A DNA stretch of 32,000 nt from NCBI GenBank assembly GCA_029856525.1, contig JAHQXC010000002.1, forward strand, positions 1 to 32,000, written 5' to 3'. This document shows, piece by piece, positions 2,177-29,949 of the stretch; positions within the stretch are counted from its first letter, which is position 1; each line of letters opens with the position of its first letter. The position numbers were made by a program, and so were the translations under genes. This DNA comes from Candidatus Odinarchaeia archaeon. GTDB lineage: Archaea > Asgardarchaeota > Odinarchaeia > Odinarchaeales > Odinarchaeaceae. The notes under the pieces were generated by a model, which saw nothing but the letters and a program-made list of their open reading frames with translations, did not search any database and was not told where the DNA came from.

Positions 2177-3604
2177 TTGAGGGATCTCAGAGTCTGCATG
2201 GTTACCGAGGGAACATACCCGTATTTTGTAGGCGGCGTAAGCTCCTGGGTTCATAGATTAATCACCCAGCTAAAACATATTAAATTTGACATACTCGCTA
2301 TTATACCCCCAGGTGAATTAAAAGAGAAATACCAGCCTCCGCCGAATCTCGAAAACATTTACAAGATACCTATAACAGACGAGCAGAAGTTCACGCAGCC
2401 ACGTCTTAAAACAGGGGAGTATTACGATAAATATATTAGAACAGTGAAATGGCTCCACCAGTATCTTAACGAAGAGGATTTTAACAATGCTTCAGAGTAT
2501 GTGGTGAAACTTTACACTCAGCTTGAAAACGATAAACCACGGTTCTGGGCTAGTAAAGTAGGCTGGGAGTATTTAAAAGAACAATATTATAAAAGAGAAG
2601 ACCCTCCTTCTATGATCGAATGGATACTAGCTTGGAAGGACACGCATATTCCTCTGCTAAATCTATTAGCTAACAGTATACCGGAAGCTGATATCTACCA
2701 TGGAACCAACAGCGGTTACGCTGGTTTCCTCGCAGTTATAGGAGGACTCAAATATAATAAACCTGTTGTCATCACCGACCACGGAATATTTCTCAGAGAA
2801 CGGTTAATGGAGTTAACTAAGGCTAAAGTGAAAGGTTTAGCTGAAGAAATGTGGCTGGATGTCTTAACAGGGTTAAGTAGATTCATATACATGAACTGTA
2901 CGCTTGTAACTTCAGTTTGCAATTATAACGTTAACTGGGTTACAGAGAAGCTTAGAATCCCTAAAGATAAATTCAAAGTCATATATAATGGAGTGGACCC
3001 TGAAAGATTAAAACCTGTAGAAGTGCCTAAACCACCATACAAAGTGGTTGGAAGCATCAGCAGAATTCACCCGATTAAAGATATTAAAATGTTTATTAAA
3101 GCCGCGGAGATTGTTTCAAAAAAAGACGGAAACGTGAAATTCTTCGTAGTCGGGCCTGTAGATGACCAGAAATATTATAAAGAATGCTTAAACCTTATTA
3201 AAAAACTCGGTTTAACCGAAAACTTTATTTTCACAGGTTCCAGGGGAGAAGACATATTATACTGGTATAATTTATTCGATATATTCGTGTTAACAAGCAT
3301 CTCCGAGGGTTTTCCGATGTCAACTATCGAGGCGATGGCGTGCGGTACACCGGTAATAGTCACAGATGTCGGTGGAGCTGCTGAACCTGTTGAAGGATGC
3401 GGTTACGTTGTACCATCAGGAGATGCTGAGCAACTAGCAGAGAGAATACTTGAAATAATTCAAAACAAAGAGTTAGCTGAGAAATTATCTGAAAACGCTA
3501 GGAGAAAAGTTGTAGAACAGTTCTCGCTTCCAAAAATAATGGAGGAGTATAGTAAAGTATACCAACAGATTTCCAAGCAATCCGCAGGTCTCCCTGAAGA
3601 ATAG
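2177..3604 (+). CDS. pelF: GT4 family glycosyltransferase PelF (DUF3492 N-terminal region plus GT-B C-terminal domain)
   Basis: N-terminal VCMVTEGTYPYFVGGVSSWVHRLI is the PelF/DUF3492 signature. Also TDHGIFLRER, SRIHPIKDIKMFIKA and the EX7E motif SISEGFPMSTIE. TTG start with SD GGTGG 6 nt upstream. Confidence 0.88.
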   Translation: MRDLRVCMVTEGTYPYFVGGVSSWVHRLITQLKHIKFDILAIIPPGELKEKYQPPPNLENIYKIPITDEQKFTQPRLKTGEYYDKYIRTVKWLHQYLNEEDFNNASEYVVKLYTQLENDKPRFWASKVGWEYLKEQYYKREDPPSMIEWILAWKDTHIPLLNLLANSIPEADIYHGTNSGYAGFLAVIGGLKYNKPVVITDHGIFLRERLMELTKAKVKGLAEEMWLDVLTGLSRFIYMNCTLVTSVCNYNVNWVTEKLRIPKDKFKVIYNGVDPERLKPVEVPKPPYKVVGSISRIHPIKDIKMFIKAAEIVSKKDGNVKFFVVGPVDDQKYYKECLNLIKKLGLTENFIFTGSRGEDILYWYNLFDIFVLTSISEGFPMSTIEAMACGTPVIVTDVGGAAEPVEGCGYVVPSGDAEQLAERILEIIQNKELAEKLSENARRKVVEQFSLPKIMEEYSKVYQQISKQSAGLPEE

Positions 3605-11626: not shown

Positions 11627-11660
11627 TTAAACCACTTATAAAATCATTCAGTTTAAAAAT

Positions 11661-12209
11661 TCAAAGCTTTCTTACAAGTATGCGGTGAGTTATATTCCTG
11701 CTTAAAGCTACTTCAAAACCGCTTATCTTCAAGATGGTTGTTCCACCGAATCTAGATTTAGCAGTTACCTCAGCTTTAACACCGGGTATTATCCCTATAC
11801 AGAGAAGCTGTTTTTCGATTATAGGGTTACCTGGTAGAATTTCAATTATTTCAACTTTAGCAGGGGGATCAACTTCCATAAGACGTTGAAACTGTTCCCC
11901 GCCAATTTTCTTTTCCTTAAAGGTCTGTGATTCTTTACTACTAGAATTAGAGAGGATCATGTTATTAGGATTCTCACTTAATTTTAAAACAAGTTCACGC
12001 CCTTTATTAGTAAGATGGATTCTCCCCCGCCAGTTAACCTTTATCAGATTCATTTCTTCAAGTAGGCGGAGGGTTTTCATAAAATCCTCTCTGTCTTTTA
12101 TATTTAACCTGTGTTGAATAGAGTCTAACGAAGTGTTTTTCCAAACTGATTCCGACTTGTATAACTCTTCGAGTATTTTACATAATCCGCTGGTAGGGGG
12201 CTGATCCAT
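11661..12209 (-). CDS. Winged-helix + FeoA domain fusion protein
   Basis: C-terminal FeoA (KQLLCIGIIPGVKAEV...GFEVALSRNITHRILV). The N-terminal LRLLEEMNLIKVNWRGRIHLTNKGRELV is a winged-HTH wing motif. Likely start is ATG 12209 (GTGG 5 nt upstream). Directly upstream of feoB. Confidence 0.75.
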   Translation of the reverse strand: MDQPPTSGLCKILEELYKSESVWKNTSLDSIQHRLNIKDREDFMKTLRLLEEMNLIKVNWRGRIHLTNKGRELVLKLSENPNNMILSNSSSKESQTFKEKKIGGEQFQRLMEVDPPAKVEIIEILPGNPIIEKQLLCIGIIPGVKAEVTAKSRFGGTTILKISGFEVALSRNITHRILVRKL

Positions 12210-12269
12210 ATAAACCACGGCTGATTAGTTAACATGACCGAAATATATTTATATGCCTCTATTTATAAG

Positions 12270-12310
12270 TATTTCGTATATCCGAAATATTCATATTCGT
12301 ATAACCGAAT
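12270..12310. promoter_or_regulatory. Tandem palindromic operators, probable DtxR-family binding sites
   Basis: TATTTCG-TATATC-CGAAATA (12270-12289) and ATTCG-TATAAC-CGAAT (12295-12310) share the core TTCGTATAWCCGAA at 13/14 identity, 23 bp apart. They lie in the divergent feo/dtxR gap, just after TATA-like TTTATAAG (12262-12269). Confidence 0.65.
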
Positions 12311-12312
12311 TC

Positions 12313-12984
12313 ATGATGAAAATGAAAAAAGAAGATAACCTAACTCACATGGCCGAGGATTATATAGCAATAATCTACAGGCTCCATGAGAAAAAGAACA
12401 CACTCGTAAAAATATCTGATCTCGCAGATTATCTACCGAATTCTCCGAGCACAATCACTGAAATGATTCAAAGATTAGCGGCTAAAAAATATTTAGATTA
12501 TGAACCTTTTAAAGGGGTTAGATTATCTCAAAAAGGAATTCAGCTAGCTGAAAAAATATTAAGAAGACATAGAATAATTGAAAGGTTTTTAACAGATATT
12601 TTAGATTTAAGCCCTGCTGAAGCTCACAACGAAGCATGCAAACTAGAGCATACAGTTTCACCTATAATCGAAGAGAGACTTTACAATGTTTTACATAAAC
12701 CAGTCACATGCCCTCATGGAAATGAGATAAACACTAAAATGAAGGAATCTCATCTAGCGGACATGTATAGTTTAAATGTTAGCGAGAGCGCTGTGATAAA
12801 AAAATTCATAGACGAAAGAGAGGAGATATTAAAGTCAATATATAGTTTAGGATTACAGATAGGAGTGCATTTCAAAATTATTAGAAAAGATGAAGATAGA
12901 ATTCTTATAAACATGGAAAACAATAAGTCGGTTCTATTAGATCGAAAACTAGCTGAAACAATACTCGTTGAGAGAGTTACTTAA
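12313..12984 (+). CDS. dtxR: DtxR/MntR/IdeR family metal-dependent transcriptional regulator with C-terminal FeoA-like domain
   Basis: EDYIAIIY, ISDLADYL...PSTITEMIQRL (HTH), RRHRIIERFL, EACKLEH (Cys/Glu/His metal ligands) and CPHGN. Start is ATG 12313, 12316 or 12322; the longer ORF-track start overlaps the promoter. Confidence 0.88.
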   Translation: MMKMKKEDNLTHMAEDYIAIIYRLHEKKNTLVKISDLADYLPNSPSTITEMIQRLAAKKYLDYEPFKGVRLSQKGIQLAEKILRRHRIIERFLTDILDLSPAEAHNEACKLEHTVSPIIEERLYNVLHKPVTCPHGNEINTKMKESHLADMYSLNVSESAVIKKFIDEREEILKSIYSLGLQIGVHFKIIRKDEDRILINMENNKSVLLDRKLAETILVERVT

Positions 12985-16192: not shown

Positions 16193-17869
16193 ATGGCTTA
16201 CATTGAAGGAATAGATAAAGGAATGGTTAATTTAAAAATAGATGACATAGAACATAAGAAACCGGCTTCTAAAGATTTTGAACTACGTTTTAAAGGGGTT
16301 TCAGTAGGCGTCACTTATAGTTTTAACATATGGTTGCATGAGCAATATCGGTCTATCTATGGTGATAAGTATCTCTATGGAGATAGTTTTATTAATTTTA
16401 ACTCAGGTCCATTCAGCAGCGATAAACTTGAAAAAAAATTAGAGGACCTACTATATTGGAAAGCGGATAAAATAGACGTTTTAAAAAAAATATCCGGTTC
16501 AAATTGGGGGATTTACTGGTCAGGTGTAACAGGGGGGATTGATAGAATTGATAGAATACTCTTCTCAGAAACGTACCTGAACAGTAACCCGCTTATACAT
16601 TTTGAACTTCAACCTATCGAGTTAATGAACCCTGTAACTCTTAAAATATATGACACTGATTCAAATGAATGGAAGAATTCAAGCAACAATGTTAAAGGTT
16701 ATATTAGAAGACTTCTAACAATTTACAGATGCGGGTTTATAACGATAACATATTTTTTAATTTTAAATTCCGGTAAAAGAGAATGGTTGGAGAGAATCCC
16801 GCATTTAACGTTGAAAAATGATTTAACAGTCGACGAGCTGATATTTATTTTAATTAAAAAATTAAGCAGCTTCAAGCTTAGAACAGGTGAAAAAACCAAT
16901 TTAGATCAGCAGGCTACAATCGACTTTATGAAAATACTTGGAAAAATCTATGACTTAGATGAGCAGGATGTTAAGGAGACAATCAACCATCTTGCTGATA
17001 AAACATCCATCAACTATTATTCTATATGTATATGGGATATAAACTGTAAATGTAAGGAACAGCATACAAACGCCGTGGATATTATTAGAAATCATCCTTG
17101 GGAGATTTACGGTTTAAGAGGGCCAGACCGACAGTGGATGAATAGAAAAGCAGAGTATATAGTCGACTCTATCTCAGACTGGTTTAATCCTTATTCAGAT
17201 ATTGTTTTTAAACCGTTTCCTAGAGTTCATATAGAAGTCACATACCCGCTTATACGGAGGAGAACGCTTATCTCCATGGGGCCTTTCTCACCTCCTCAAA
17301 GACTATGGGAGTTTAGAGTCGTCCAGGAGAAAGTCTTCAGAACCTTCAATCAATTACTCAGCGAGGAGACATCTAAGCTTTCAAAAACACTTAAAGTAGA
17401 AGAGCTGATTGAAACAGTGAAAAACGTAGCTAATATTAGAAGAAGACTTATAGGTGTCTTAGAAGACTTATACTGGATATCTAGCAGTATCAATCATATA
17501 CCTGATCGAAATTATTTAAGCTACGCGCAAATCACAGCTGGTTTAAATAATATGAAAAACACGCTATTCGAGAAAATAAACAATTTAGTTGAAATATCTA
17601 GAGATGAAACTAATATAACTAATCTCGATGTAGGCTCGAGAATGAGCCTTATAAGAACATATGCTTCCGTTCTAAGCATATTCTTAGCTACTATAATAAC
17701 TTTAGCCAGCACTTTATCTAATATTTATATTTGGATGCTAGGGCCGAGGCCGGCAACACTTAGTTTAACAGATCAGATTATGATAATACTGCAGATCTTC
17801 GGATTAAACGCCGCCTTCCTAATACCTATCGTGTTAATAGTTTGGAGGATTTTCAAGAAATTCAGGTAG
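16193..17869 (+). CDS. Hypothetical protein with a large soluble N-terminus, long helices and two C-terminal TM segments (CorA-like topology)
   Basis: 558 aa. A helical/coiled region precedes TYASVLSIFLATIITLASTLSNIYIW and IMIILQIFGLNAAFLIPIVLIVW, then a basic tail. No GMN motif. Confidence 0.6.
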   Translation: MAYIEGIDKGMVNLKIDDIEHKKPASKDFELRFKGVSVGVTYSFNIWLHEQYRSIYGDKYLYGDSFINFNSGPFSSDKLEKKLEDLLYWKADKIDVLKKISGSNWGIYWSGVTGGIDRIDRILFSETYLNSNPLIHFELQPIELMNPVTLKIYDTDSNEWKNSSNNVKGYIRRLLTIYRCGFITITYFLILNSGKREWLERIPHLTLKNDLTVDELIFILIKKLSSFKLRTGEKTNLDQQATIDFMKILGKIYDLDEQDVKETINHLADKTSINYYSICIWDINCKCKEQHTNAVDIIRNHPWEIYGLRGPDRQWMNRKAEYIVDSISDWFNPYSDIVFKPFPRVHIEVTYPLIRRRTLISMGPFSPPQRLWEFRVVQEKVFRTFNQLLSEETSKLSKTLKVEELIETVKNVANIRRRLIGVLEDLYWISSSINHIPDRNYLSYAQITAGLNNMKNTLFEKINNLVEISRDETNITNLDVGSRMSLIRTYASVLSIFLATIITLASTLSNIYIWMLGPRPATLSLTDQIMIILQIFGLNAAFLIPIVLIVWRIFKKFR

Positions 17870-19019
17870 ACGCGGATTCGAAGAAGGCTTGCAATCGTTC
17901 AACACCCTCCTTTAAATCCTCGTCAGGAAGCGCATAGCAAATCCTGAAATTATATTCAGAACCTTCGCCGAATATTGTTCCAGGTGAAACCGCCACATGC
18001 GCTTTATTTAAAAGTTCCATCGCTAAAGTCTCAGAGTTAAGCTTACATCTATCACGTGGAAATATGTAAAATGCTCCCTGAGGGACAGGTGTTTCTAATC
18101 TGGAGATCTTCTTCAAACCTTCTATAATAGTATTCCTTTTTCTCAAAGCTAACCCCACAACAGTTTTAACATACTCCTTATATTCAGATAATATGTCTAA
18201 ACACGCTTTTTGCGCGAATGTGACAGGGGCGGTTACAGTATGCTGCTGTACTATATTCATTCTATCAATAATATTTCTAGGCCCCGCAGCGAAACCAACC
18301 CGCCAGCCAGTCATAGAGAATACTTTAGAAAAACTATCAGTGAGAATAGTCTTCTCAAAACCGTTGCTAATAGCAGCCGGACTGTAATGAACATGACCGT
18401 CATACGTGTAAGCCCAGTCGACTTCATCCGAGAGAATATAAAACCCTTTCTCTACAGCTAAATCTACGATAAACTTTAAATCGGATTTATCTAGCACACC
18501 GCCGGTGGGATTATTCGGCGTGTTTAAAACTACTAATTTAGTTTTCCTGGTGACAGCGTTTTGAAAACGCTCATGGTTAATCTTGTAAAGCGGATCGGTT
18601 AAAACCTCTCTAATATTTTTTATACCTAGAAGCATTGGAATAGCTTTAAAACTACTCCAGAACGGTGTTAAAAGAATAACTTCATCGCCTGGTTTTAGAA
18701 GAGATGCGAAAACGCAGTAAGATGAAAACTTCGACCCAGGGGTGACGATTATTTCCTCAGGATTATAGGAGACACCTCTAGTTTCTTCGAGAAAGAGTTT
18801 CAACCCTTCTCTTAACTCGAGAAGACCCTTAGTAGGAGAATACCTATTATACCCTTCTAACACAGCTTTACAAGTAAAATTCACAGCGTTTTCAGGCGGA
18901 TCGAAACACGGCTCAGCTAAGTCAAACCGGATAACCTTAACGTTATCCCTCCTCTCAACAAGCCTAACCATATCAGTTATAGATACAGGGGAGATTGGAA
19001 TATCTTTTTTACTCCACAT
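17862..19019 (-). CDS. PLP-dependent aminotransferase class I/II (aspartate aminotransferase-like)
   Basis: YSPTKGLLELRE, VTPGSK, LNTPNNPTGG, ILSDEVD, SFSKVFSMTGWRVG (PLP lysine), PQGAFY and PGTIFG. Likely start is ATG 19019 (SD GAAGGTGG). Confidence 0.9.
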   Translation of the reverse strand: MWSKKDIPISPVSITDMVRLVERRDNVKVIRFDLAEPCFDPPENAVNFTCKAVLEGYNRYSPTKGLLELREGLKLFLEETRGVSYNPEEIIVTPGSKFSSYCVFASLLKPGDEVILLTPFWSSFKAIPMLLGIKNIREVLTDPLYKINHERFQNAVTRKTKLVVLNTPNNPTGGVLDKSDLKFIVDLAVEKGFYILSDEVDWAYTYDGHVHYSPAAISNGFEKTILTDSFSKVFSMTGWRVGFAAGPRNIIDRMNIVQQHTVTAPVTFAQKACLDILSEYKEYVKTVVGLALRKRNTIIEGLKKISRLETPVPQGAFYIFPRDRCKLNSETLAMELLNKAHVAVSPGTIFGEGSEYNFRICYALPDEDLKEGVERLQAFFESAST

Positions 19020-19100
19020 TAAACCACCTTCCAATAGTAGAAAATAAAATATAAATAAATCTATTCGCAAAATTAATAGAAAAATTATTTTAAAAGGCTG

Positions 19101-20366
19101 ATGAAAATGGGCTCGAAAGAAATATTCGAAGCAGCTTCGAAAAGTATCCTACTAAAAGATCCATATGTTAAGAAAATCTGGAATCTTATAAACGATAAAA
19201 CCTTATTTAATAAATCACCGGATTATCTTAAAGCGCTTAGAAAAAGTCTATTAAGAGAAGCCTTAGACTTTTTTTCTAGGAGAAGCGAATACTACCAACA
19301 GACCTTTGAGAAATTAAATATTAACCCGAAGAATGCGGATTTTACAGATTTAGCGAAGCTAGCTGTTCCAGCTGATATGCTAAGAGGTGAAGGGCATAAA
19401 CAGTTCCTGATAAGGGATGTTGAGCAGGGAGGGGAATACTTTACCTCAAGTGGAACCACAGGTAAAACACCTGTTAAAATATATAGAAGCCCTTTGGATC
19501 TGGCTATAATGATTAAAGCTAACACCGATCTATTTGAATATGTTTACGGAGATGTTTTAGAGCAGGGTAAAGGTATAGCTTTATTCATGGCAGCCCCGGA
19601 GTTAAGATATAAATTAAGTTTCGTAGCGTTCGTTGATCTCACACTCGACAATAAAAATATTCCATTATTATATGGAATGAATCTTGTTCGAAACAAAGAC
19701 GGTACAACTGACTGGCAGAGACTTGAGTTAAATAAAGAGAATGTGGTGAAATTTTTGAAAAGTCGAGAGGAGCCTAAACTGTTTTTCACAGCACCGGCAG
19801 GCGTCTATCTTATGGCGGATAAATTCGATAAAATGAACTTCTTAAAAAAGCTAATATACAGGATAGCCACTACAGCCCCCCCTGTCAACCTAGGAAAAGG
19901 GGGGGTGATTGTAACCGGAGGGGGAACTAAAGGGTTTACAAATCTGCCGTCATATGATAAGATTGTGGAGCTTTCAAGAAAATATTTTAAAGCTAAAAAT
20001 AAAGCAGGGGAGGAGCACCCAGCACCTTTCATGGATGTGCTAGGGATGACGGAGACTTTAACCGCGTTAATAGATCGATTCGGTGTTATGAATAAAATAC
20101 CACACCCCTTATCCCACGTTTTCCTATTAAAACCTAGTACATTTGAGTTAATAGAAGATGATGAAGGGCAGGAAGGCGTGTTAGGTATATTCAACCCGTT
20201 TACAACATCATGGCTTGAATTATTCTATCCAGGTGATTTCATGAAAGCTCACAGCTCTAATCGATATTACGGTAAAGAATACACTTATGTTAGAAGATTC
20301 ACCCCTGAAGAGGGCTGGGAGCTTCAAAGAGCATGCGGGGGAACACTAGAAGAGATGATGAGATAA
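19101..20366 (+). CDS. LuxE-like acyl-protein synthetase (adenylate-forming)
   Basis: FTSSGTTGK (adenylation A3 loop), VTGGGTKG, DVLGMTE, GVLGIFNP and YPGDF, plus C-terminal LQRACGG matching the LuxE acylated Cys (RGC). Start is ATG 19101 or 19107. Confidence 0.75.
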   Translation: MKMGSKEIFEAASKSILLKDPYVKKIWNLINDKTLFNKSPDYLKALRKSLLREALDFFSRRSEYYQQTFEKLNINPKNADFTDLAKLAVPADMLRGEGHKQFLIRDVEQGGEYFTSSGTTGKTPVKIYRSPLDLAIMIKANTDLFEYVYGDVLEQGKGIALFMAAPELRYKLSFVAFVDLTLDNKNIPLLYGMNLVRNKDGTTDWQRLELNKENVVKFLKSREEPKLFFTAPAGVYLMADKFDKMNFLKKLIYRIATTAPPVNLGKGGVIVTGGGTKGFTNLPSYDKIVELSRKYFKAKNKAGEEHPAPFMDVLGMTETLTALIDRFGVMNKIPHPLSHVFLLKPSTFELIEDDEGQEGVLGIFNPFTTSWLELFYPGDFMKAHSSNRYYGKEYTYVRRFTPEEGWELQRACGGTLEEMMR

Positions 20367-20382
20367 AACAGAGGCTTAGAAG

Positions 20383-21852
20383 ATGAAGTTAACTCCTTTA
20401 GCACCTATGAGCATAAGAGATTTTATTAGAAAAACAGTAGGAGACATAGAGGTATTAGAGCTTAGCGAAAAAAGTTTAGATGAAATCTTAAAAGAATTTA
20501 AATCGATTCAATCCTCTTTAGCAAAAACACCTATAGAAGAAAGGATTAAAATATTCGACAAGCTCGGTTTAATTTGGAGAAGAAAATTAGATAACGGTGA
20601 ACTTGAAAACTTGAAGAAAACGCTATCAGAATTGACAGGTTATAGTGAACACCTCATAGAGTTAGAGTTTAATCTAGTCTCCTATCTGTTAAACGAAGCT
20701 AATATTAGGCGTAATCTGGAAGCAGCTTTCAATAATGGAGTGGAAGGCCTTAGCAAATTCATTAAAATCGCTGAAAACGAGTACTTTAAGTATATGCCGG
20801 CTGGGCCTGTGTTCATAATAAGTTCAGGTAACTCTCTTATACCCCCACTTATCCCAACCACTTTATCGCTGGTAACAGGAAATTTAACAATACTTAAACC
20901 ATCTATTTCAAATTATCCCGGTGTTATTGAAGTTTACAGAAATCTAGAGGAGATTGCGAAAAATGATAAGACAGCGGAGACCATTCTCTCAGCGATAGTC
21001 ATCAGCTATTTCACACATGACAGCCCGGCACTCAAGCATCTTTTAACTAAAACCCCATTAGGAGTTGTTAATTTCTGGGGAGCTGAACCTGCTAGAACTG
21101 TGATAGCTAAACTTGTAGCAGAAAACCAATATCATCCACGCCTTATAGTGAACGGCCCTTTAACAGGTTTAGCGATAATAGACTCAGAGTCAGCTAACCT
21201 AGCAGCTAAAGAACTGGCGTTAAACATGATCTTATACGATCAGCAACTTTGCAGTTCACCTACGCAAGCAGTTTTTATAGGTAAATTAGAAGAAGCGGTT
21301 TCATTCGCTGAAAGTGTAGGGCGATACCTAGACCTTATCGGCGATAAAATTAAGATGAAAACTAAAGACTCTGCGCTTTACCTTCTGCAAACCGCTAGAC
21401 GAGCATTACAGTTTAAGGGAGTTAAAATACTGTTCTCAAATAAACACGACAACCCTTGGACTATAATAGTATCAAAAGAGAAAAGTAGTTTACAATCGTT
21501 ATCAGAAAGCCTACCAGAGTTTAATATCTATAATAGGAGAAGATTCATAGAAATAATAGTTACGGAAAAATTAGATGACGCGCTTAAAATAATAGAATCA
21601 GTTCGTTTAAATCCTGCTTTCAAAGAAGTAGATAAAGTTCAATCAATAGGGTTAGCGTTATCCGAGTCTAATAAAAATAAAATAATAGAGGAACTGCCTA
21701 ATACGGGAATATATAGAATCACTACTCTAGCAGATATGTATATGAGAAGCGCTATAGAACCATACGATGGAGCGTCGATACCATTACTTTTCACTTACAC
21801 AGTTTATAGAAGAGATGTTAAACATCCATATGAAATAGCCCAATTATTTTAG
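20383..21852 (+). CDS. LuxC-like acyl-CoA/acyl-protein reductase (ALDH-like fold)
   Basis: PAGPVFIISSGN, LKPS, VNFWGA, NGP and YDQQLCSSPTQ (the LuxC catalytic Cys motif DQxxCxSP). Starts 16 bp after the luxE-like gene. Confidence 0.8.
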   Translation: MKLTPLAPMSIRDFIRKTVGDIEVLELSEKSLDEILKEFKSIQSSLAKTPIEERIKIFDKLGLIWRRKLDNGELENLKKTLSELTGYSEHLIELEFNLVSYLLNEANIRRNLEAAFNNGVEGLSKFIKIAENEYFKYMPAGPVFIISSGNSLIPPLIPTTLSLVTGNLTILKPSISNYPGVIEVYRNLEEIAKNDKTAETILSAIVISYFTHDSPALKHLLTKTPLGVVNFWGAEPARTVIAKLVAENQYHPRLIVNGPLTGLAIIDSESANLAAKELALNMILYDQQLCSSPTQAVFIGKLEEAVSFAESVGRYLDLIGDKIKMKTKDSALYLLQTARRALQFKGVKILFSNKHDNPWTIIVSKEKSSLQSLSESLPEFNIYNRRRFIEIIVTEKLDDALKIIESVRLNPAFKEVDKVQSIGLALSESNKNKIIEELPNTGIYRITTLADMYMRSAIEPYDGASIPLLFTYTVYRRDVKHPYEIAQLF

Positions 21853-21866
21853 GAAGTGAGTTTAAA

Positions 21867-22862
21867 ATGAAAATCCTTGTAACAGGGGCCTCAGGTTTTT
21901 TAGGAGGCCACTTAGTTGAAACTTTAGCGAATAAAGGATATAAGATAATAGCTATGGTAAGAGAGACCAGTAATATAGAATTAATAAAAGACTTAGTATT
22001 CGAATTCAGATATGCTGATTTAAGTGAACCTGAAACTATCGTCGAAGCTGTTAAAGGCGTTGACGTTATAATCCATTTAGCAGCCTACTATACTTTTCAC
22101 GGTTCCAGCAAACTATATGAAAAAATTAACGTTGAAGGAACAAGATATTTAGCTGAAGCTGCTTTAAAAAATAAAATTCAACACTTCATCTACTGTAGTA
22201 CAACCGAAGTTATAGGCCCTGTTAAAAATCCCCCGGGAGATGAAAACACTGAACCTAACCCTACTTATGAATACGGGAGATCGAAACTAAAAGCGGAGAA
22301 GATAATTAAAGAATATGGTTTAAAAGGCGTAAATTATACGATTATACGACCCTCAGGAATATATGGGCCTAGAAACGTTAACGACGTATCATACTGGACA
22401 ATCACATCTTTCGCTAAAAACTCTATAGGCACACGATTTATTATAGGTAGCGGTGAAAACCTAGTTCAGTTCGTTCATGTAAAAGATGTTGTTGAAGGAT
22501 TCACTTTAGCATTAGAAAAAAGAGACATATCAAGTAGACAAACATATATTATCAGCGAGGATAAAGCTTACACATATAAGCAAGTATATGAAATTCTAGC
22601 AGATTTAACCGGTAGAAAACCGCCAAGCAAGCATATACCTAAAACATTAGCTAAAATTTTAATAGCGCCTATACAAGGAGTAAATAGAATACTCGGTAAA
22701 GAGAATTTTTTATATCATATTAGCACCGTTGACTCTGTCTGCTCTGATAGAGCCTATAGTATTGAGAAAGCTAAACGAGAATTAGGTTATACTCCCAGAT
22801 ATGATTTGAGAACAGGGTTGAAGGAAACAATCGAATGGTATACTAAAAATGGATATATCTAG
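21867..22862 (+). CDS. NAD-dependent epimerase/dehydratase family extended SDR (3-beta-HSD-like)
   Basis: TGASGFLG, HLAA, NVEGT, CST, YGRSK (YxxxK) and RPSGIYGP. Third gene of the luxE-luxC run (14-bp gap). Confidence 0.88.
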   Translation: MKILVTGASGFLGGHLVETLANKGYKIIAMVRETSNIELIKDLVFEFRYADLSEPETIVEAVKGVDVIIHLAAYYTFHGSSKLYEKINVEGTRYLAEAALKNKIQHFIYCSTTEVIGPVKNPPGDENTEPNPTYEYGRSKLKAEKIIKEYGLKGVNYTIIRPSGIYGPRNVNDVSYWTITSFAKNSIGTRFIIGSGENLVQFVHVKDVVEGFTLALEKRDISSRQTYIISEDKAYTYKQVYEILADLTGRKPPSKHIPKTLAKILIAPIQGVNRILGKENFLYHISTVDSVCSDRAYSIEKAKRELGYTPRYDLRTGLKETIEWYTKNGYI

Positions 22863-22863
22863 T

Positions 22864-24396
22864 TTAGAGTAAATAGATTACATTCGATAAAGCTAATGCG
22901 ACGGTTGACAGCAATAGCATATTAGAGATTATTTGGCTAAACCAGCTCATAGAAACGTGAGAGAAAATTGTGCTAACAACCGTAGATACAGATATCAGAA
23001 TCACCATTAAATTTAATCCGAGTAAGAGAAAAGAAACATTTTGTTGAAGAATAAGAGCGACTATAAATAATTGAACTAGAAGAGAAGAAACTGTGATGAG
23101 AATTTGAAGAGTACAAGATAATATAGTAGATAACCATCCTGAACCTAGTGTGCGCTTAATTAAACCTCTGAAAAACAGCTCATAAAAGAAGAACACGCAG
23201 AAATACGCTGGGAGATATAGAAGTAAAAAAATCAATTTAACAGAAGCTGTTGAGAAAGTCGAAGCTGTATTAAAGCCGACGCTGGTATAAAATAATATTA
23301 TAAGAGAGATTCCGACGGTAAACCCTATTATAAGGTTTTGAATAAAATTTTCTCCAAGGTTATTTTTAGATTCTCGTATAAATGCGCGCCAATCAAGCCG
23401 TCTTCTAAAAATAATTAAAGCTAAAGCCCCTAAGCTGATAGAGTTTCCTAAAAATAGAGAAGTAATAAAGTTTGTGAAAAGCAGAGGGCTTATAATGAAA
23501 AAAACAGGGGATAATAATAAAGTTAAAGCAGCCCCACAGAAGCTAGCGATTATGAAACCTGAGCTGAGGTATAGAAGAGTTTCACACTTAATTTGCAGCT
23601 GTCTGACATCTGTTTCAACACGTTTTTTAGTATTAATATTTTCCAATAAAATATGAGCGGCGGGCAGAATGATCATTAAACCGGCGATTAGAGTTGAGAA
23701 AACTGAAGCCCCTATTAAATCAGAGTTAATAGTGGAAGATTCCTCTATCCCTGAAACAGCCCTGGTTACCCATTTAACAACCTCATTTATAATAACAGGT
23801 TTATATAAAATATTAAGATGATCGGAAGAATCATCTATGAAAAGCTTTTTTTCAGATCCACCTGCGAAGTATGTAATACCCGGTTCCCCTGTATTATTAA
23901 TAGAGTTATAAAATGCGTTGATAACAGCTTGATTATCAATTATGAAATCTCCTTCAGAGATGATGAGAAGAAGGTTCCTAGGAGTAGTAAGATTAACAGA
24001 GTTCGAGGAGATAGCTGGGGCTATTCCGATAGTTGCAATAGGTTGAAGAATTTTACTCATGTTAACCGCTACACTCCCACCCATACTGTGACCTATAAAA
24101 ATAAGCTGACTTATATTACCTATTTTGTGAAAGATAAGCGAATCTAATACGGCTTGAATATCAATGTCGAAGCGGTTTATATCACTCATGCTTCCCCCGC
24201 TATCGCCATGCCCTCTCAGATCAATTAACACGCTAATAAAATTTCTTTCAGCTAAAGCAAGCCCTATCATCTTCATCATTTTTCTGTTACCTGAAAATCC
24301 GTGAATTAGAAATATGAGAGGGGCTTCATTGCTAGTAGAAGGTTTTTTAATAATATCGAATACTATTGGAACACCGTCATCGGTTACGGCGTGCAT
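22864..24396 (-). CDS. Alpha/beta hydrolase fused to a multi-pass C-terminal membrane domain; true N-terminus probably extends upstream
   Basis: IHGFSG, DLRGHGDS, nucleophile elbow GHSMGG, SEGD and DHLNILY, followed by about 8-9 TM segments. The frame stays open for 42 more codons to 24522 and encodes a signal-peptide-like stretch with no canonical start. Confidence 0.82.
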   Translation of the reverse strand: MHAVTDDGVPIVFDIIKKPSTSNEAPLIFLIHGFSGNRKMMKMIGLALAERNFISVLIDLRGHGDSGGSMSDINRFDIDIQAVLDSLIFHKIGNISQLIFIGHSMGGSVAVNMSKILQPIATIGIAPAISSNSVNLTTPRNLLLIISEGDFIIDNQAVINAFYNSINNTGEPGITYFAGGSEKKLFIDDSSDHLNILYKPVIINEVVKWVTRAVSGIEESSTINSDLIGASVFSTLIAGLMIILPAAHILLENINTKKRVETDVRQLQIKCETLLYLSSGFIIASFCGAALTLLLSPVFFIISPLLFTNFITSLFLGNSISLGALALIIFRRRLDWRAFIRESKNNLGENFIQNLIIGFTVGISLIILFYTSVGFNTASTFSTASVKLIFLLLYLPAYFCVFFFYELFFRGLIKRTLGSGWLSTILSCTLQILITVSSLLVQLFIVALILQQNVSFLLLGLNLMVILISVSTVVSTIFSHVSMSWFSQIISNMLLLSTVALALSNVIYLL

Positions 24397-24595: not shown

Positions 24596-25189
24596 TTATT
24601 CTTTCTTCTGCCATGGACCTAGCGGTAATACTGTTCTATTATACATTCCATTTAAGATTATTCCAGCGGCTGTATACATTGCACTGGCACCGCATACTAT
24701 GCCCTCTAAACCTGTGATTGTTAAGACCAGTGTGCTTCCAGTGAGATATATTACAGTGTTTGAAATAGCGAGCAAGTAGAATAGAATAGCTAAGCTACCT
24801 AGCACAAATGATAATGCTTTAGTAGTTTTAAATGAGCCTACAAAGAATATTGTGGTGAAAACACCCCAAACAAGCATTGTCCAAGCAAGGTCTATAACTG
24901 TAATAGTCGGGAATAACCCCATTGAACTAAGAGATAAAGCGGTAGCTAAACCTATCCAGAATAAACCGTAAGAGCAGAAAGCTGTTCCACCGAATGTGTT
25001 ACCTTTTCTAAGATCGATTATACCAGCTATTACTTGAGCTAAACCACCGTAAAAGAATCCGTAGCCGATAGCCATCGTATTTGCAACACCTAATAAACCT
25101 AGGTTATGTAAATTTAGTAATACAGTCGTTAAACCGAAGCCGAATAATCCTAGCGGACTAGGATCAGCCCATGTTTGTTTTTCAGACAT
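24596..25189 (-). CDS. satP: Acetate uptake transporter, GPR1/FUN34/YaaH (SatP) family
   Basis: ADPSPLGLFGFGLTTVLLNLHN, FFYGGLAQVIAG and GNTFGGTAFCSYGLFW. Start ATG 25189 with SD GGAGGT. Confidence 0.92.
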   Translation of the reverse strand: MSEKQTWADPSPLGLFGFGLTTVLLNLHNLGLLGVANTMAIGYGFFYGGLAQVIAGIIDLRKGNTFGGTAFCSYGLFWIGLATALSLSSMGLFPTITVIDLAWTMLVWGVFTTIFFVGSFKTTKALSFVLGSLAILFYLLAISNTVIYLTGSTLVLTITGLEGIVCGASAMYTAAGIILNGMYNRTVLPLGPWQKKE

Positions 25190-25488
25190 TAATTTAACCT
25201 CCGAATAGTGGTTAAATATTGTCAGTTTAGCGTTAAATATATAATGTTTACGATTATTTTCGCTCAGCACAGTAAAGCATATGAATTTAAGCGTATGAGA
25301 CTAGCAGTGGTGAAATTAGTTCCAGCGGTTTATCAGCCAGTTAAAGTTGAGGATATTTCCTCTTACTATAGATTTAGTAGGTTTACTGGTTAACTATGTC
25401 AGGTTCTAGTTTGAATCTTAGTGGAAAAGTTTTTTTATATAAAAGTCTGAAATTAATAATTATTTAGATTATTTTGAAGGTGAATTAT

Positions 25489-26760
25489 TTGGAGAAAACC
25501 TCGAATATAAGCGGATTTTATAAATTGAATATCGCTCAGAGAAGGCGTGTGGTTAAAGAATTTGCAGGTTTAACCGATGAAGATTTAGAGCTTCTTGGAG
25601 ATATCAACGATCCGTTAACTAGTATAGCTGATAAAATGATTGAAAACGTTATAGGAACCACTAGGATTCCTTTAGGGATAGCGGTTAACTTTCTTATAAA
25701 CGGGAAAGATTATCTTATTCCCATGGCTATAGAGGAGCCTTCAGTGGTTGCGGCGGCTTCTAACGCGGCTAAAATCGCTAGAATAAGAGGCGGATTCACA
25801 GCCACCAGCACCGATCCTATCATGATAGGTCAAATCCAGGTACTCGACGTTAAAGATCCTCATGCTAAAAAATTTGAAATTTTAAAACATAAAACAGAGC
25901 TTCTCCAAATAGCTAATGAACAGGACCCTGTTCTAAACAGATTCGGTGGAGGCGCTAAAGACATAGTTGTGAGAGTGATTGAATCTATAAGAGGACCTAT
26001 GCTTATCATACACCTACTTGTAGATACAAGGGATGCTATGGGAGCGAATGCAGTTAATACTATGTGTGAAGCGCTCACTGATAAAGTAGCTCAGATAACA
26101 GGGGGGAGAGTTGGTCTACGGATTATTTCAAATCTTGCAGTTTACCGGTTGTGCAGAGCTAAAGCGATATTCGATAAAGAAGCTTTAGGCGGAGAAGATG
26201 TGGTTGATAAAATATTAGACGCATATGCTTTCGCTGAAGCTGATATATTCAGATGCGCTACGCATAATAAAGGTATTATGAACGGGATAACAGCGTTAAT
26301 GTTGGCGACTTGTAATGATACTAGGGCTGTAGAGGCGGGGGCGCATGCTTACGCTGCTTTAAACGGCGGGTATAAACCTCTAACACGATGGGAGAAAGAT
26401 AGCGAAGGGAATTTGGTAGGTTCAATAGAGTTACCTATGGCTGTAGGTCTGGTGGGAGGCGCGACTAAAGTTCATCCGATAGCGCAGCTAGCTATAAAAA
26501 TTTTAAATGTAAAAACAGCTAACGAGTTAGGGGAGGTTGCAGCTTCACTGGGTTTAGCTCAAAACTTCGCGGCGATTAGAGCTTTAGCCACCGAGGGTAT
26601 TCAGAAAGGACATATGCGGTTACATGCCCGGAATATAGCGATCACAGCCGGGGCTAGCGAGGATATCGTGGATAAAGTGGTTGAGGAGCTTGTTAAAATC
26701 GGTAAGATTAGAGTGGATATAGCTGAGAAGATTATTAAAGAGTTGCAACAATCTAAATAG
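25489..26760 (+). CDS. mvaA: Hydroxymethylglutaryl-CoA reductase, class II ('degradative' type)
   Basis: ISGFYKL, ENVIG, PMAIEEPSVVAAAS, DAMGAN, THNKGIMNG, DTRAVEAG and GIQKGHMRLH. Likely start is TTG 25489 (SD GGTGA 5 nt upstream). Confidence 0.93.
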   Translation: MEKTSNISGFYKLNIAQRRRVVKEFAGLTDEDLELLGDINDPLTSIADKMIENVIGTTRIPLGIAVNFLINGKDYLIPMAIEEPSVVAAASNAAKIARIRGGFTATSTDPIMIGQIQVLDVKDPHAKKFEILKHKTELLQIANEQDPVLNRFGGGAKDIVVRVIESIRGPMLIIHLLVDTRDAMGANAVNTMCEALTDKVAQITGGRVGLRIISNLAVYRLCRAKAIFDKEALGGEDVVDKILDAYAFAEADIFRCATHNKGIMNGITALMLATCNDTRAVEAGAHAYAALNGGYKPLTRWEKDSEGNLVGSIELPMAVGLVGGATKVHPIAQLAIKILNVKTANELGEVAASLGLAQNFAAIRALATEGIQKGHMRLHARNIAITAGASEDIVDKVVEELVKIGKIRVDIAEKIIKELQQSK

Positions 26761-27814
26761 AGTCTAAGAGTTCACGCCAAGATACATGATCGTAAACCAT
26801 TTTCTTTGTTAAATTTATCCTAGAAGTGTCTGATGGTTTAATCTTACCCGTAAGGCCCTCGAGAATTTTAACAGTGGAATATGTGTCGTGAGGAACCATT
26901 ATCACAGTAATGTTTTTTTCACTAGCTTTAACTAACACTTGCTCTGAAGGCCTCAAGTTCCCGGTTAACACTATAACAGAGGCGTTAGTCTCCACAGCTG
27001 CGGATATTATATCAGCTCTATCCCCGCCTGTTATAATCGCATTATTCCCGCTTCTTCTAAAATATCTTAGAGACGACTCTGTTTGCATGGCGCCTATGAA
27101 AATGTTTTCGATAACGCGATTGATATCGCCTTTAACAAGCACTTCTCCTTCCAACAGCTCTAAGAGTTCTCGAACTGTAGGTGAGGAAATCTCATAGCTT
27201 CTAGGTATTACCCCCCAGACTTTAACACCATGCCTGTTAAGTAGCTCGGTGTACTCGCCTTCAGCTTTCTCCATCATATATGGTGGGATCTGATTTAAAA
27301 CAGCGCCTACTAGTTGAACGCCACGCATATCTAGAATACTTTTATAGAACAGTATCTTCTCAATAGAGCTGTCGCTTACACCCCCTGAGATAGCTAGAAC
27401 CTTTGAGTTTAAAAGTTCAGCTATATCTATATTATTTAAATTAAATGCCGTCATGGTTTCAGGTGAAACACCGCCTTCAACTATTATTATATCAGAGTTC
27501 TCCGATAGTTTACCGTATTGTTTCAAGATCATACTCCTTAAATCTGCAACATCTCGTTTAGCGTAAACACTTAAATAGTTAGGTTCAATTAAAATAGGTG
27601 TTAACTCATCTAGGGTAAAAGGAAGTTTTAAAGTCTCTTTCATTAAGAGAACATCAGGATCTACAGCTCCTTCTGTAACAGATGTTTGAGGTCGACCGAC
27701 AGGACGGAAATAGCTTACTTTAAAACCGTTCTCCACTAAGACCTGGGATAAACCTAGTATGAAAGCTGTTTTACCTGAAAACCCTTCCCATGAAACTACA
27801 AATAAGGATTTCAT
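26753..27814 (-). CDS. Phosphotransacetylase-family N-terminal-like protein (AAA_26/BioD-like + DRTGG domain), no catalytic PTA_PTB domain
   Basis: GFSGKT, SYFRPVG, IIIVEG, GAVLNQ, IFIGAM, AIITGGDR (DRTGG) and VIVLTG. Start ATG 27814 (SD AGGTGA). Confidence 0.82.
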   Translation of the reverse strand: MKSLFVVSWEGFSGKTAFILGLSQVLVENGFKVSYFRPVGRPQTSVTEGAVDPDVLLMKETLKLPFTLDELTPILIEPNYLSVYAKRDVADLRSMILKQYGKLSENSDIIIVEGGVSPETMTAFNLNNIDIAELLNSKVLAISGGVSDSSIEKILFYKSILDMRGVQLVGAVLNQIPPYMMEKAEGEYTELLNRHGVKVWGVIPRSYEISSPTVRELLELLEGEVLVKGDINRVIENIFIGAMQTESSLRYFRRSGNNAIITGGDRADIISAAVETNASVIVLTGNLRPSEQVLVKASEKNITVIMVPHDTYSTVKILEGLTGKIKPSDTSRINLTKKMVYDHVSWRELLDSI

Positions 27815-27834
27815 ACTATCACCTATAATTTTTT

Positions 27835-29949
27835 TCAAATATATAAAGACATTTTAACATCTACAGCGATACAGCCCTCACCTTTATTATAAACGAATAA
27901 AGGATTAACATCCAACTCTGATATAACTGGAAACTCTTCTACTAATTGTGAGACGGCTAGAATAGTTTTAATAACCGCATCTATATCAGCAGGCTGCTCT
28001 CCTCTAACACCTTTAAGTAGATTATACACTTTAGTCTCTTTTATCATTTCTTCAGCGTCGTTAAAAGTAACTGGAACTATTCTAAAAGCAACATCTCTTA
28101 GAAAGTTAACATATACTCCTCCAAGCCCGAACATTAGTAGATGACCGAATTGAAGATCCTTATTAACCCCGATTATAACCTCTTTACCTTTCTCAACATA
28201 CTCGTATACTTCAACCCCGTATATTCTAGCATTAGGGAAAAGCTTATGCGCGTTAGCGACCATGCCTATGAAGATTTTTCTCACGTCTTCTTCATTCTTC
28301 ACGTTTAAAGCAACACCGCCTACATCAGATTTGTGAATTATATCAGGGGAGGCTATTTTCAAAGTAACAGGGTAACCGATCTCGGCAGCAGCCTCACAGG
28401 CTTCTTCACTATTGGAAGCTAGATGAACTTTAGGAGTTTTAACATTGTAAAAACTTAATATTTCGCAGGCTTCACTGGATAGCAGTGTTCTTCGATTTTC
28501 ACTTAAAACTCTCTTAATTATTTCACGAATAGGTTCCTTATCCACTGGAATCTTAAATTTTCTATGAGACATCTTCTTTTCACGAATAAGCTTATATCTT
28601 GTTAAAGCCGCTATGCTTTCAACCGCGTCCTCTGGGAAACTGAAGACAGGTATATTATTCTCGGATAAAATTCGTTTAGCTTCAGCTACCTGCTCACCGC
28701 CTATTAGGGAAAAAGCAACTGGTTTATCTATCATACTGGTAAGCTTAACTAATTCTAAAACTGTTTCAGTTGGTTTAGTTGTAGCCTGAGGTGTTAAAAT
28801 AATAATTAGAGAGCTGACGTTATCGTCATCTTTAAGCGTCTCTAAAGCCTTATAATATCTTTCAGGCTGAGCGTCGCCTAGGATGTCTACGGGATTATAA
28901 ATAGACGCGTTTGGTGGCAGCCGTTCTCTGAGATTATTCAAGGTCTCATTTTTAAGCTGAGCTAGTTTTAAACCGTGTTTTTCACACGCATCCGTCGCTA
29001 TAATTCCAGGGCCGCCTGCGTTGGTTAAAATACAAATAGAGTTATCTTTCGGAAGCGGTTGAGTTGAGAATACTTTCGCATAGTTGAATAAATCGGATAT
29101 AGTTTCAACCTGTAAGGCTCCGAATTGTTTAAACACAGTTTCATAAGCTATCCTGCTTCCTGCAAGAGACCCTGTATGAGAGGCAGCTGCCCTCTGCCCT
29201 GCCGTTGATGAACCTGACTTTAAAACTAGCACAGGTTTTATTTTAACAGTTTTTTTAAGAGATTTAATGAATTTACCACCGTCTTTAACATCTTCAATAT
29301 ATAATAATATAACCTTCGTGTTATTATCAGCGGCTAAGGCGTTGATGAAATCTGATTCATCTAAGTCTGCTTTATTACCTAAACTTATCACTTTACTAAA
29401 GCCTATTCTATTCTTAAAAGACCAGTCTAGTATCGCTGTTCCCAGAGCTCCGGATTGAGAGATGAACGCTATATTCCCTTTCAGAGGCATCTGAGCTGCG
29501 AATGAAGCGTTTAAAGGTGTGAAAGTGTCTATAACTCCAAGGCAGTTAGGTCCAAGTAAGTTCATCTTATATTTTTTACATATATCTTTAAGCGCTCTCT
29601 CTCTTTCAGCGCCCTCTTTTCCAGTCTCCTTAAACCCAGCGGATATCACTACGAGATTTTTAACCTTACTAGCACCACATTCTTCAGCTACTTTAACAAC
29701 GCTCTCAGCCGGTATCACTATTACAGCTAAGTCTATTTCATCGTTTATCTCACTTATATTAGAATACACTTTTAAGCCGAGAATCTCTTGATAATTAGGG
29801 TTCACAGGGTAAACTCTCCCCATGTAACCGTATTTTATTACATTCTCTAAAATATTATAGCCTAGTTTACCTGGCTTAGAAGAAGCCCCTATTATAGAAA
29901 CAGATTTAGGGTTAAATAACGTTGACAGGAGAATGTCAGGTTTATGCAT
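27835..29949 (-). CDS. Acetate--CoA ligase (ADP-forming) family, fused alpha-beta subunits
   Basis: IIGASSKPGK, GPNCLG, SQSG, SLGNK, AASHTGS (phospho-His), TNAGGPG, NPVD, LKIASPDIIHKSDVGGV and ELDVNP. No GNAT domain. Confidence 0.93.
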   Translation of the reverse strand: MHKPDILLSTLFNPKSVSIIGASSKPGKLGYNILENVIKYGYMGRVYPVNPNYQEILGLKVYSNISEINDEIDLAVIVIPAESVVKVAEECGASKVKNLVVISAGFKETGKEGAERERALKDICKKYKMNLLGPNCLGVIDTFTPLNASFAAQMPLKGNIAFISQSGALGTAILDWSFKNRIGFSKVISLGNKADLDESDFINALAADNNTKVILLYIEDVKDGGKFIKSLKKTVKIKPVLVLKSGSSTAGQRAAASHTGSLAGSRIAYETVFKQFGALQVETISDLFNYAKVFSTQPLPKDNSICILTNAGGPGIIATDACEKHGLKLAQLKNETLNNLRERLPPNASIYNPVDILGDAQPERYYKALETLKDDDNVSSLIIILTPQATTKPTETVLELVKLTSMIDKPVAFSLIGGEQVAEAKRILSENNIPVFSFPEDAVESIAALTRYKLIREKKMSHRKFKIPVDKEPIREIIKRVLSENRRTLLSSEACEILSFYNVKTPKVHLASNSEEACEAAAEIGYPVTLKIASPDIIHKSDVGGVALNVKNEEDVRKIFIGMVANAHKLFPNARIYGVEVYEYVEKGKEVIIGVNKDLQFGHLLMFGLGGVYVNFLRDVAFRIVPVTFNDAEEMIKETKVYNLLKGVRGEQPADIDAVIKTILAVSQLVEEFPVISELDVNPLFVYNKGEGCIAVDVKMSLYI

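Follow-up and report, generated by a model that had tools for sequence, protein, structure and literature searches.

A conserved LuxE–LuxC–SDR gene cassette of many archaea, predicted to reduce carboxylic acids, in one Odinarchaeota genus

Which reaction is served by an archaeal gene cluster that encodes a LuxE-like protein, a LuxC-like protein, and a short-chain dehydrogenase/reductase (SDR), and does it inform the evolution of fatty acid metabolism toward eukaryotes? The cluster occupies positions 19101–22862 of the window, which is the whole 32,000-nucleotide stretch analyzed here (positions 1 to 32,000 of contig JAHQXC010000002.1, assembly GCA_029856525.1, Candidatus Odinarchaeia archaeon). 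The genome measures 1.32 Mb and is 93% complete, and the proteins of the window are 88–91% identical to those of metagenome-assembled genomes labeled ‘Candidatus Odinarchaeota archaeon’, their nearest named relatives. An earlier sequence-only reading had proposed an acid-to-aldehyde(-to-alcohol) route with a bearing on fatty acid metabolism in the lineage closest to eukaryotes. The first part, a LuxE/LuxC-type pair plus an SDR, is supported as a prediction; the second is not. The cluster is a real, conserved, and uncharacterized LuxCE-type cassette, predicted to be acid-reducing, and is not a feature of Asgard archaea or of eukaryogenesis.

The cassette comprises three open reading frames (ORFs), all on the plus strand: gene 1 (19101–20366), gene 2 (20383–21852), and gene 3 (21867–22862). 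The gaps between them measure 16 nt (gene 1/gene 2) and 14 nt (gene 2/gene 3), and these coordinates bear out the co-oriented arrangement with 14–16 bp gaps described from the sequence alone. The motifs listed in that reading, namely, an adenylation loop, a C-terminal cysteine (RACG), DQQLCSSP, and YxxxK, are likewise all present, and they are invariant in alignments of 21–25 relatives from several phyla. The database call for gene 1 begins two codons downstream, at the ATG at 19107, and yields 419 aa. The three genes are read from their sequence as one operon. Its features are as follows.

19101–20366, plus strand: LuxE-like carboxylate-adenylating enzyme (E), predicted to be self-acylating, 421 aa (fold, profile, and hhalign)
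19446–19466, plus strand: P-loop/A3 adenylation motif SSGTTGK, residues 116–122 of E (sequence and alignment)
19929–19931, plus strand: Lys277 of E within TGGGTKG, opposite the catalytic Lys238 of LuxE in the HMM alignment
20292–20297, plus strand: Arg398-Arg399 of E (VRR), aligned with Arg354-Arg355 of LuxE
20334–20336, plus strand: Cys412 of E in QRACGG, invariant, the candidate acyl-carrying cysteine, in the tail RRFTPEEGWELQRACGGTLEEMMR
20383–21852, plus strand: LuxC-family acyl-thioester reductase (C), 489 aa (PF05893; AlphaFold2 (AF2) model against 7xc6_A)
21235–21261, plus strand: YDQQLCSSP of C, aligned with YDQQAC of Photobacterium phosphoreum LuxC, with the predicted catalytic Cys290 at 21250–21252
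21867–22862, plus strand: extended SDR (S), 331 aa, probable NADPH-dependent aldehyde reductase (PF01370; profile match to 3wj7_A)
21885–21905, 21960–21962, 22272–22274, and 22284–22286, plus strand: GASGFLG, Arg32, Tyr136, and Lys140 of S, respectively, the last two within YGRSK

The product of gene 2 is a member of the LuxC family (PF05893, cd07080) and not an orthologue of the LuxC of luminous bacteria. The PF05893 hidden Markov model (HMM), a check proposed with the sequence-only reading, matches it at 113.1 bits against a cut-off of 21 (E 1.9e-32, model positions 5–392 of 401), while the LuxC equivalog NF052251 reaches 46 bits against a cut-off of 750. In a Foldseek search with its AF2 model (predicted local distance difference test (pLDDT) 92.6), the best match is LuxC 7xc6_A (template modeling (TM) score 0.80/0.82, root-mean-square deviation (rmsd) 3.5 Å, E 2.4e-22). 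The next matches, ALDH6A1 and GapN, follow five orders behind (E ~1.7e-17, TM 0.6–0.7). The segment YDQQLC290 aligns with YDQQAC of 7xc6_A, the P. phosphoreum LuxC, whose catalytic cysteine is Cys296 in the numbering of PMC9157457. Y285, Q287, Q288, L289, C290, S292, and P293 are invariant in 25 relatives.

The product of gene 1 is treated as a divergent sister family of LuxE that lies outside PF04443 by the Pfam threshold. Its family profile finds LuxE 7xc6_E as the top sequence match in the PDB (E 3.3e-4, versus 0.099 for PaaK). An hhalign comparison of its family (A1) with a PF04443 member (P0171, 144 bits) extends over 337 columns with 98.3% probability and E 1.7e-14. An exhaustive profile search of 1.84 billion representatives returns 72 clusters that match the gene 1 family, and the first full-length outgroups carry PF04443; in the Atlas, 83 of the 100 nearest clusters do so. 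A precomputed PF04443 match is present in just two of 120 homologue clusters of gene 1 itself. With gene 2 above the PF05893 cut-off and closest in fold to 7XC6, and with this full-length alignment to a PF04443 member, the pair falls with LuxE and LuxC and not with PaaK ligases and generic aldehyde dehydrogenases (ALDHs), as the sequence-only reading had it.

The architecture of E is also that of LuxE, in which an ANL N-domain is retained and the C-terminal subdomain is replaced by a short tail (PMC9157457). Residues 31–404 of the model align to residues 6–333 of PaaK1, which correspond to the N-domain alone, and 17–18 residues remain. E thus consists of a PaaK-like ANL N-domain and, in place of the C-terminal subdomain, an 18-residue tail that bears a cysteine; residues 410–418 of this tail are disordered in the model (pLDDT <50). 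Cys412 is invariant in 21 sequences and is the tenth residue from the C-terminus, like Cys364 of LuxE, which sits in the flexible C-terminal motif TRxxKGCxLS (PMC9157457). The HMM alignment between gene 1 and LuxE ends before Cys412, and the surrounding motif is QRACGG, not KGCxLS. Upstream of the tail, S116, S117, G118, and T119 of SSGTTGK are invariant in the 21-sequence alignment. The HMM alignment places TGGGsKG of gene 1 opposite ITGGGWK of LuxE and ‘vyvrrl’ opposite ‘IVRRL’, with Lys277, Arg398, and Arg399 all invariant. Lys277 and Arg399 (with Arg398) therefore line up with LuxE Lys238 and Arg355 (with Arg354), for which a catalytic role of Lys238 and mutagenesis of R354/R355 have been reported (Tian et al., PMC9157457). 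E resembles LuxE in its architecture and in the aligned Lys/Arg pair, and it is predicted to work like LuxE.

The coupling of E and C is evident from gene order. The synteny set comprised 80 loci, in each of which all ORFs within ~8 kb were clustered. The E and C genes are adjacent in 69 of the 76 loci that hold E, and the order E–C–S is retained in ~60 of the 80 loci, across at least eight archaeal lineages, among them Methanomassiliicoccales, Methanomethylicia, Nitrososphaeria, Brockarchaeota, and Sulfolobales, with flanking genes that vary by lineage; where the order is not seen, the contig usually ends. In addition, LuxE-like and LuxC parts are joined in a natural fusion of 884 aa (P0134). 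Modeling of the E–C complex gave a score of 0.61, compared with 0.02 for the best of three controls. Of 80 solved complexes, 58 attain this mark, as do two of 110 mismatched pairs. At least 69% of the contacts agree among runs, partner pLDDT is at least 83, and the predicted interface takes in a highly conserved segment of E, residues 88–98. The model supports the binding of E to C and does not show it; since the LuxC–LuxE complex 7XC6 is already solved, the pass may reflect likeness to that structure.

Gene 3 encodes an extended SDR of the NAD-dependent epimerase/dehydratase type (PF01370, 164.7 bits, E 3e-48). G7/G10/G13 of the GxxGxxG motif, S111/T113, Y136, and K140 are conserved in its relatives. 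Arg32 after strand 2 is invariant, and an arginine at this place in SDRs points to the use of NADPH. The nearest models are of the HpnA, SdmB, and OleD types, and gene 3 stays below each cut-off (HpnA TIGR03466, 179 bits against 367.65). The sole full-length relative in the PDB is 3wj7_A (E 1.3e-48 in the profile search), which is listed as a ‘putative oxidoreductase’ and is probably Gox2253 of Gluconobacter oxydans. Gox2253 is called an aldehyde reductase in a preprint (PMC13692258). Like 3WJ7 and the HpnA-like and 3-beta-hydroxysteroid dehydrogenase-like SDRs, gene 3 combines the Rossmann GxxGxxG motif, an S/T-Y-K triad, and the arginine after strand 2; it falls under the cut-offs of HpnA, SdmB, and OleD, in a clade that includes steroid and sugar-nucleotide enzymes. 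The product of gene 3 is probably an NADPH-dependent aldehyde reductase.

Taken together, the three genes probably constitute an operon for the CoA-independent reduction of a carboxylic acid to an aldehyde and then to an alcohol, each step of E, C, and S being predicted from sequence, fold, and context. As its architecture suggests, E would adenylate the acid with ATP via the SSGTTGK loop and the Lys277/Arg399 pair. The acyl group would then be moved to Cys412 of E itself on the flexible tail, which would take the place of the CoA-handling C-terminal subdomain of PaaK-type ligases. In the second step, Cys290 of the LuxC-like reductase, bound to E, would receive the thioester from the tail, and the aldehyde would be released with NADPH. 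In a more tentative third step, the extended SDR, whose Arg32 is typical of NADPH users, may turn the aldehyde into an alcohol.

Several observations weigh against this proposal. The LuxE HMM (PF04443), named beside that of LuxC as a check, does not recognize gene 1: the product has no Pfam match even at E=10, and PF04443 was also missed in a genome-wide search. The NCBIfam LuxE model NF052244 gives it 14 bits against a cut-off of 550. The closest solved folds to its model (pLDDT 82.9) are PaaK-family CoA ligases (Foldseek E ~1e-13). The tail motif QRACGG departs from the TRxxKGCxLS of LuxE, with the cysteine 13 residues past the arginine as opposed to nine. Neither the tail of E nor Cys290 is reported at the modeled E–C interface, and three Methanomethylicia genomes hold E without a detectable LuxC-like gene. 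The SDR family also includes sugar-nucleotide and steroid enzymes, so the aldehyde reductase role is a guess from context. Finally, no acyl-CoA dehydrogenase was found in the 93%-complete genome, which holds three AMP-binding matches in all, one of them under the family cut-off. Because acyl-CoA dehydrogenase was not detected and acyl-activating enzymes are few, endogenous fatty acid metabolism looks minimal.

The closest characterized counterpart is the LuxC–LuxE system of Photobacterium phosphoreum (7XC6, PMC9157457). Both systems pair an adenylating subunit that lacks the ANL C-terminal subdomain and carries a cysteine on a short flexible tail, together with an active-site Lys/Arg pair, with an ALDH-fold partner that harbors the YDQQxC catalytic cysteine. 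In both, the genes are adjacent, and here the complex is predicted. The Odin cassette differs in its order, E–C–SDR, and in having no luxAB, luxD, or luxG genes. Its E is ~48 residues longer, lies outside PF04443, and has a different tail motif; its C reaches just 46 bits on the LuxC equivalog. The archaeal cassette also has an attached gene for a predicted aldehyde reductase, and its hosts are anaerobic archaea. The absence of luxAB and luxD from the window, as stated in the sequence-only reading, is confirmed by a window scan. In the whole genome, LuxD has no match, and the three luciferase-like PF00296 matches, all on other contigs, belong to Mer-like F420 oxidoreductases.

That LuxCE-type pairs also serve outside bioluminescence is shown by luciferase-less homologues of luxC and luxE that lie in the flagellin glycosylation islands of bacteria (PMC7874193, PMC4875605). 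By their descriptions these are set apart from the archaeal cassette, as they are bacterial, encode canonical Pfam LuxE and LuxC, and lie among fatty acid synthesis and sugar-modifying genes. A search of the full-text literature found no study of an archaeal LuxE–LuxC–SDR cassette.

Carboxylic acid reductase (CAR; adenylation, peptidyl carrier protein, and reductase domains, A-PCP-R) and fatty acyl-CoA/acyl carrier protein (ACP) reductase (FAR) are functional analogues, in which ATP and NADPH drive the conversion of an acid to an aldehyde, or onward to an alcohol, via a thioester bound to a protein or a cofactor. In CAR, the arm is phosphopantetheine and the R domain is of the SDR type; FAR begins from CoA or ACP thioesters. 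In the archaeal cassette, by contrast, the carrier would be a protein cysteine and the reductase is of the ALDH fold.

As for the substrate, the best guess, held tentatively, is a hydrophobic aliphatic acid, either fatty or isoprenoid. A fatty acid is plausible; LuxCE itself uses a long-chain one, myristate. Weak hints of a hydrophobic substrate come from the covalent-tail mechanism, from the nearest solved relative of the SDR, and from four mapped positions of the LuxC cleft, which are hydrophobic in gene 2 (L94, L98, I108, I157) on a weak 28-bit alignment that reaches nine positions. It is possible, although doubtful, that the trio represents an undescribed and widely shared archaeal system for the CoA-free reduction of free long-chain fatty or isoprenoid acids to alcohols or aldehydes, destined for a lipid or a salvage route or used as a signal. 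If so, anaerobic archaea would have a dedicated means of handling hydrophobic acids, and the very high conservation of E would reflect an obligate E–C channeling complex.

A polar substrate is possible. In its explicit form, in which a small polar or functionalized acid (amino, hydroxy, sulfo, or dicarboxylic) is converted to a semialdehyde or alcohol for a cofactor, a solute, or a central intermediate and no lipid pathway is involved, this alternative is unlikely. It draws on the very high conservation of E over phyla (58–91% identity), which resembles core more than secondary metabolism, and on the retention of the cassette in small genomes of 1.3–1.5 Mb. Lipid-carrier, acyltransferase, or wax-synthase partners are seen in the loci of no lineage, and in some lineages the neighbors are a ComB-like phosphatase, an aminotransferase, and branched-chain amino acid genes. 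However, such neighbors are lineage-specific, the mapped cleft positions of C, within the limits of that alignment, are hydrophobic, and the closest solved SDR is probably an aldehyde reductase of the aliphatic kind. One specific version, in which the cassette replaces the aspartate kinase/aspartate-semialdehyde dehydrogenase/homoserine dehydrogenase route from aspartate to homoserine, was dropped, as the genome contains two Semialdhyde_dh genes.

A further question is whether the alcohol is the end product. The aldehyde itself may be the true product, serving as a signal, as a reactive intermediate, or, through the neighboring aminotransferase, as the precursor of an amine, with the SDR acting elsewhere on the molecule or detoxifying excess aldehyde. 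Consistent with this distinctly unlikely alternative, E and C occur without S at two loci (L016 and L038), a related archaeal E–C pair without an SDR lies beside V4R and KaiC-like sensor genes, the E–C fusion sits in a radical-SAM/carbamoyltransferase cluster, and the Odin genome has an adjacent, divergent aminotransferase gene. Yet the SDR gene is collinear in ~60 of the 69 loci that have C and is separated from it here by 14 nt, and the aminotransferase is of the class I/II aspartate type, not an omega-transaminase, and is adjacent in Odin only. Reduction onward to the alcohol stays the favored outcome.

It is quite improbable that the pair acts via CoA, with an acyl-CoA ligase of the PaaK type encoded by gene 1 and a reductase of acyl-CoA by gene 2, in an ordinary CoA-dependent acid-reducing or aromatic/short-acid pathway. 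The best Foldseek and VIA matches of E are indeed PaaK1, BT_0428, and 2-hydroxyisobutyryl-CoA ligase (VIA fold match to PaaK/HCL: Z 25–26, rmsd ~3.1 Å over 310–330 residues). Gene 1 has weak N-terminal NCBIfam matches to FlxY, DVU_1553, PaaK, and LuxE, none of them strong, and the first three outscore LuxE; several E homologues are named ‘phenylacetate-CoA ligase’ by JGI, and LuxC may accept acyl-CoA too (PMC9157457). The PaaK-family ligases (2Y27, 2Y4O, BT_0428 4R1M, HCL 6HE0) provide the best structural matches to the N-domain of E and share its P-loop, but they have a C-terminal subdomain of ~100 residues and form CoA thioesters, whereas E has the 18-residue cysteine tail and the coupling to LuxC. 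E ends 18 residues past the N-domain and so lacks the subdomain that ANL ligases use for CoA thioesterification (PMC9157457). It also has the invariant tail cysteine and the LuxE-type Lys/Arg pair, its profile is nearer to LuxE than to PaaK, and the PaaK equivalog TIGR02155 yields 16 bits against a cut-off of 646. The solved LuxE, 7xc6_E, is not among the top 50 Foldseek or top 50 VIA entries for the gene 1 model. The LuxE part of 7XC6 is described as fragmentary (PMC9157457), a possible reason why neither list includes it, and its omission is not counted against LuxE kinship.

The predicted CoA-independent cassette is distributed far beyond the Odinarchaeota. Homologues of E that are 58–91% identical across archaeal phyla occur in Odinarchaeota, Methanomethylicia/Methanosuratincola, thermophilic Nitrososphaeria, Brockarchaeota, Bathyarchaeota, Methanomassiliicoccales, Methanofastidiosia, Archaeoglobales, Thermofilales, and Sulfolobales/Desulfurococcaceae. 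No fourth gene common to the lineages was found among the ORFs within ~8 kb in the 80 loci. A MenA-like UbiA prenyltransferase gene and a radical SAM gene are neighbors in Methanomassiliicoccales only, and ABC-2 transporter genes are scattered among the loci. The orphan E of the three Methanomethylicia genomes lacks the SDR as well as LuxC, and two such E sequences sit on long branches; in two Sulfolobales genomes, C is unlinked. The cassette is a self-contained module of many anaerobic, mostly thermophilic or sediment archaea.

Two further contexts of the genes were observed. In Methanomethylicia, the cassette is followed on the same strand by genes for a glutaredoxin and for a ferredoxin-thioredoxin-reductase::rubredoxin fusion (L008:11789–12666; also L007, L009–L011, L021, L024, L027, L042, and L078). 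These genes stay beside the orphan LuxE-like gene in the three genomes without LuxC and SDR, and there may be a thiol-redox link to the cysteine-dependent enzyme. The 884-aa fusion is encoded in an archaeal operon (L095:668–8655, plus strand) together with a carbamoyltransferase, two unknown proteins (399 and 369 aa), and a radical SAM/SPASM protein, which is a different, undescribed biosynthetic context of the same enzyme pair. On the metagenome contig of P0135, a distant E–C pair precedes an unknown gene, after which come genes for a V4R protein and for two KaiC-like ATPases.

Within the Asgard archaea, the E subfamily is present in four of four genomes of the Odin genus to which the window belongs and in none of 396 other genomes, and it is absent from three other genomes of the same order. 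Other subfamilies of the LuxC family are common in Asgard archaea (67 of 400 genomes and 30 of 85 genera) and often score far higher, so the presence of the LuxC family in Asgard archaea is not unusual. The maximum-likelihood tree places the Odin sequences in a single clade, nested within a group made up of Methanomethylicia, Nitrososphaeria, Brockarchaeota, and an Archaeoglobales row; support for the backbone is moderate. The tree is unrooted, such that any direction of transfer is an inference; the most economical reading is that one Odin genus probably gained the cassette laterally. Scarcely credible, and largely refuted by the distribution, is the wider idea of a fatty-acyl reduction pathway specific to Asgard archaea that would shed light on how fatty acid lipids evolved toward eukaryotes. 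The Odinarchaeota host genome, the HMG-CoA reductase gene two genes downstream, and the LuxC-family genes of those 67 genomes could be cited for it. Against it, the E subfamily is confined to one genus (four of 400 Asgard genomes), the Odin sequences nest among TACK rows, and the trio is also kept in TACK archaea and Methanomassiliicoccales. The neighboring genes for HMG-CoA reductase, the aminotransferase, and the hydrolase are conserved within Odin only, and acyl-CoA dehydrogenase was not found in the genome.

The genes around the cassette in the window are of separate interest. A functional tie to the HMG-CoA reductase, aminotransferase, or alpha/beta-hydrolase gene was considered and rejected, as conservation of these neighbors stops at Odin. 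The aminotransferase ORF (17862–19070, minus strand) is listed from a TTG at 19070. Its start is more likely the in-frame ATG at 19019, because the resulting 385 aa equal the length of the orthologue in an Odin relative (L005). If the gene begins there, the spacer to gene 1 is ~81 nt, AT-rich, and a divergent promoter region. Shortly downstream of the cassette lies an acetate-related cluster (24596–29949). The spacer and the members of this stretch are as follows.

19020–19100, no strand assigned: AT-rich divergent intergenic region with candidate promoters, with the aminotransferase gene on one side and the LuxE-like gene on the other (read from the sequence)
24596–25270, minus strand: SatP/YaaH-family channel
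25474–26760, plus strand: HMG-CoA reductase, two genes downstream of the cassette
26753–27838, minus strand: DRTGG/AAA_26 protein
27835–29949, minus strand: ADP-forming acetyl-CoA synthetase-like protein

The gene immediately downstream (22864–24396, minus strand) is convergent with the SDR gene and ends 1 nt past its stop. It encodes a 510-aa protein in which an alpha/beta-hydrolase domain is confined to the first ~170 residues and the remaining ~340 residues have no family match; the protein is found in one Odin relative (L006, 63%) and is absent from another (L005). Upstream of the cassette, a 558-aa ORF (16193–17869, plus strand) matches no Pfam, NCBIfam, or Atlas family. It is 88% conserved in one other Odin genome (L005) and stands beside the cassette nowhere else among the loci compared. 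Farther away, the span 9659–12984 holds FeoB (9659–11626, minus strand) near a DtxR-type iron repressor fused to a FeoA domain (12253–12984, plus strand), and a head-to-head pair consists of a PelG-like gene (464–2062, minus strand) and a DUF3492/GT4 PelF-like gene (2177–3604, plus strand).

The cassette does not inform eukaryogenesis: it is not an Asgard trait and is common to many non-Asgard archaea, and thus has little bearing on the origin of eukaryotes. It is carried by methanogens of digesters and guts, by TACK archaea of hot springs, and by one genus of Odinarchaeota; none of its members has been characterized. If the biochemistry holds, the cassette would be a compact, thermostable system for the conversion of carboxylic acids to alcohols without CoA or phosphopantetheine. 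Knowledge of its substrate would close a gap in what is understood of archaeal metabolism and could give a useful biocatalyst.

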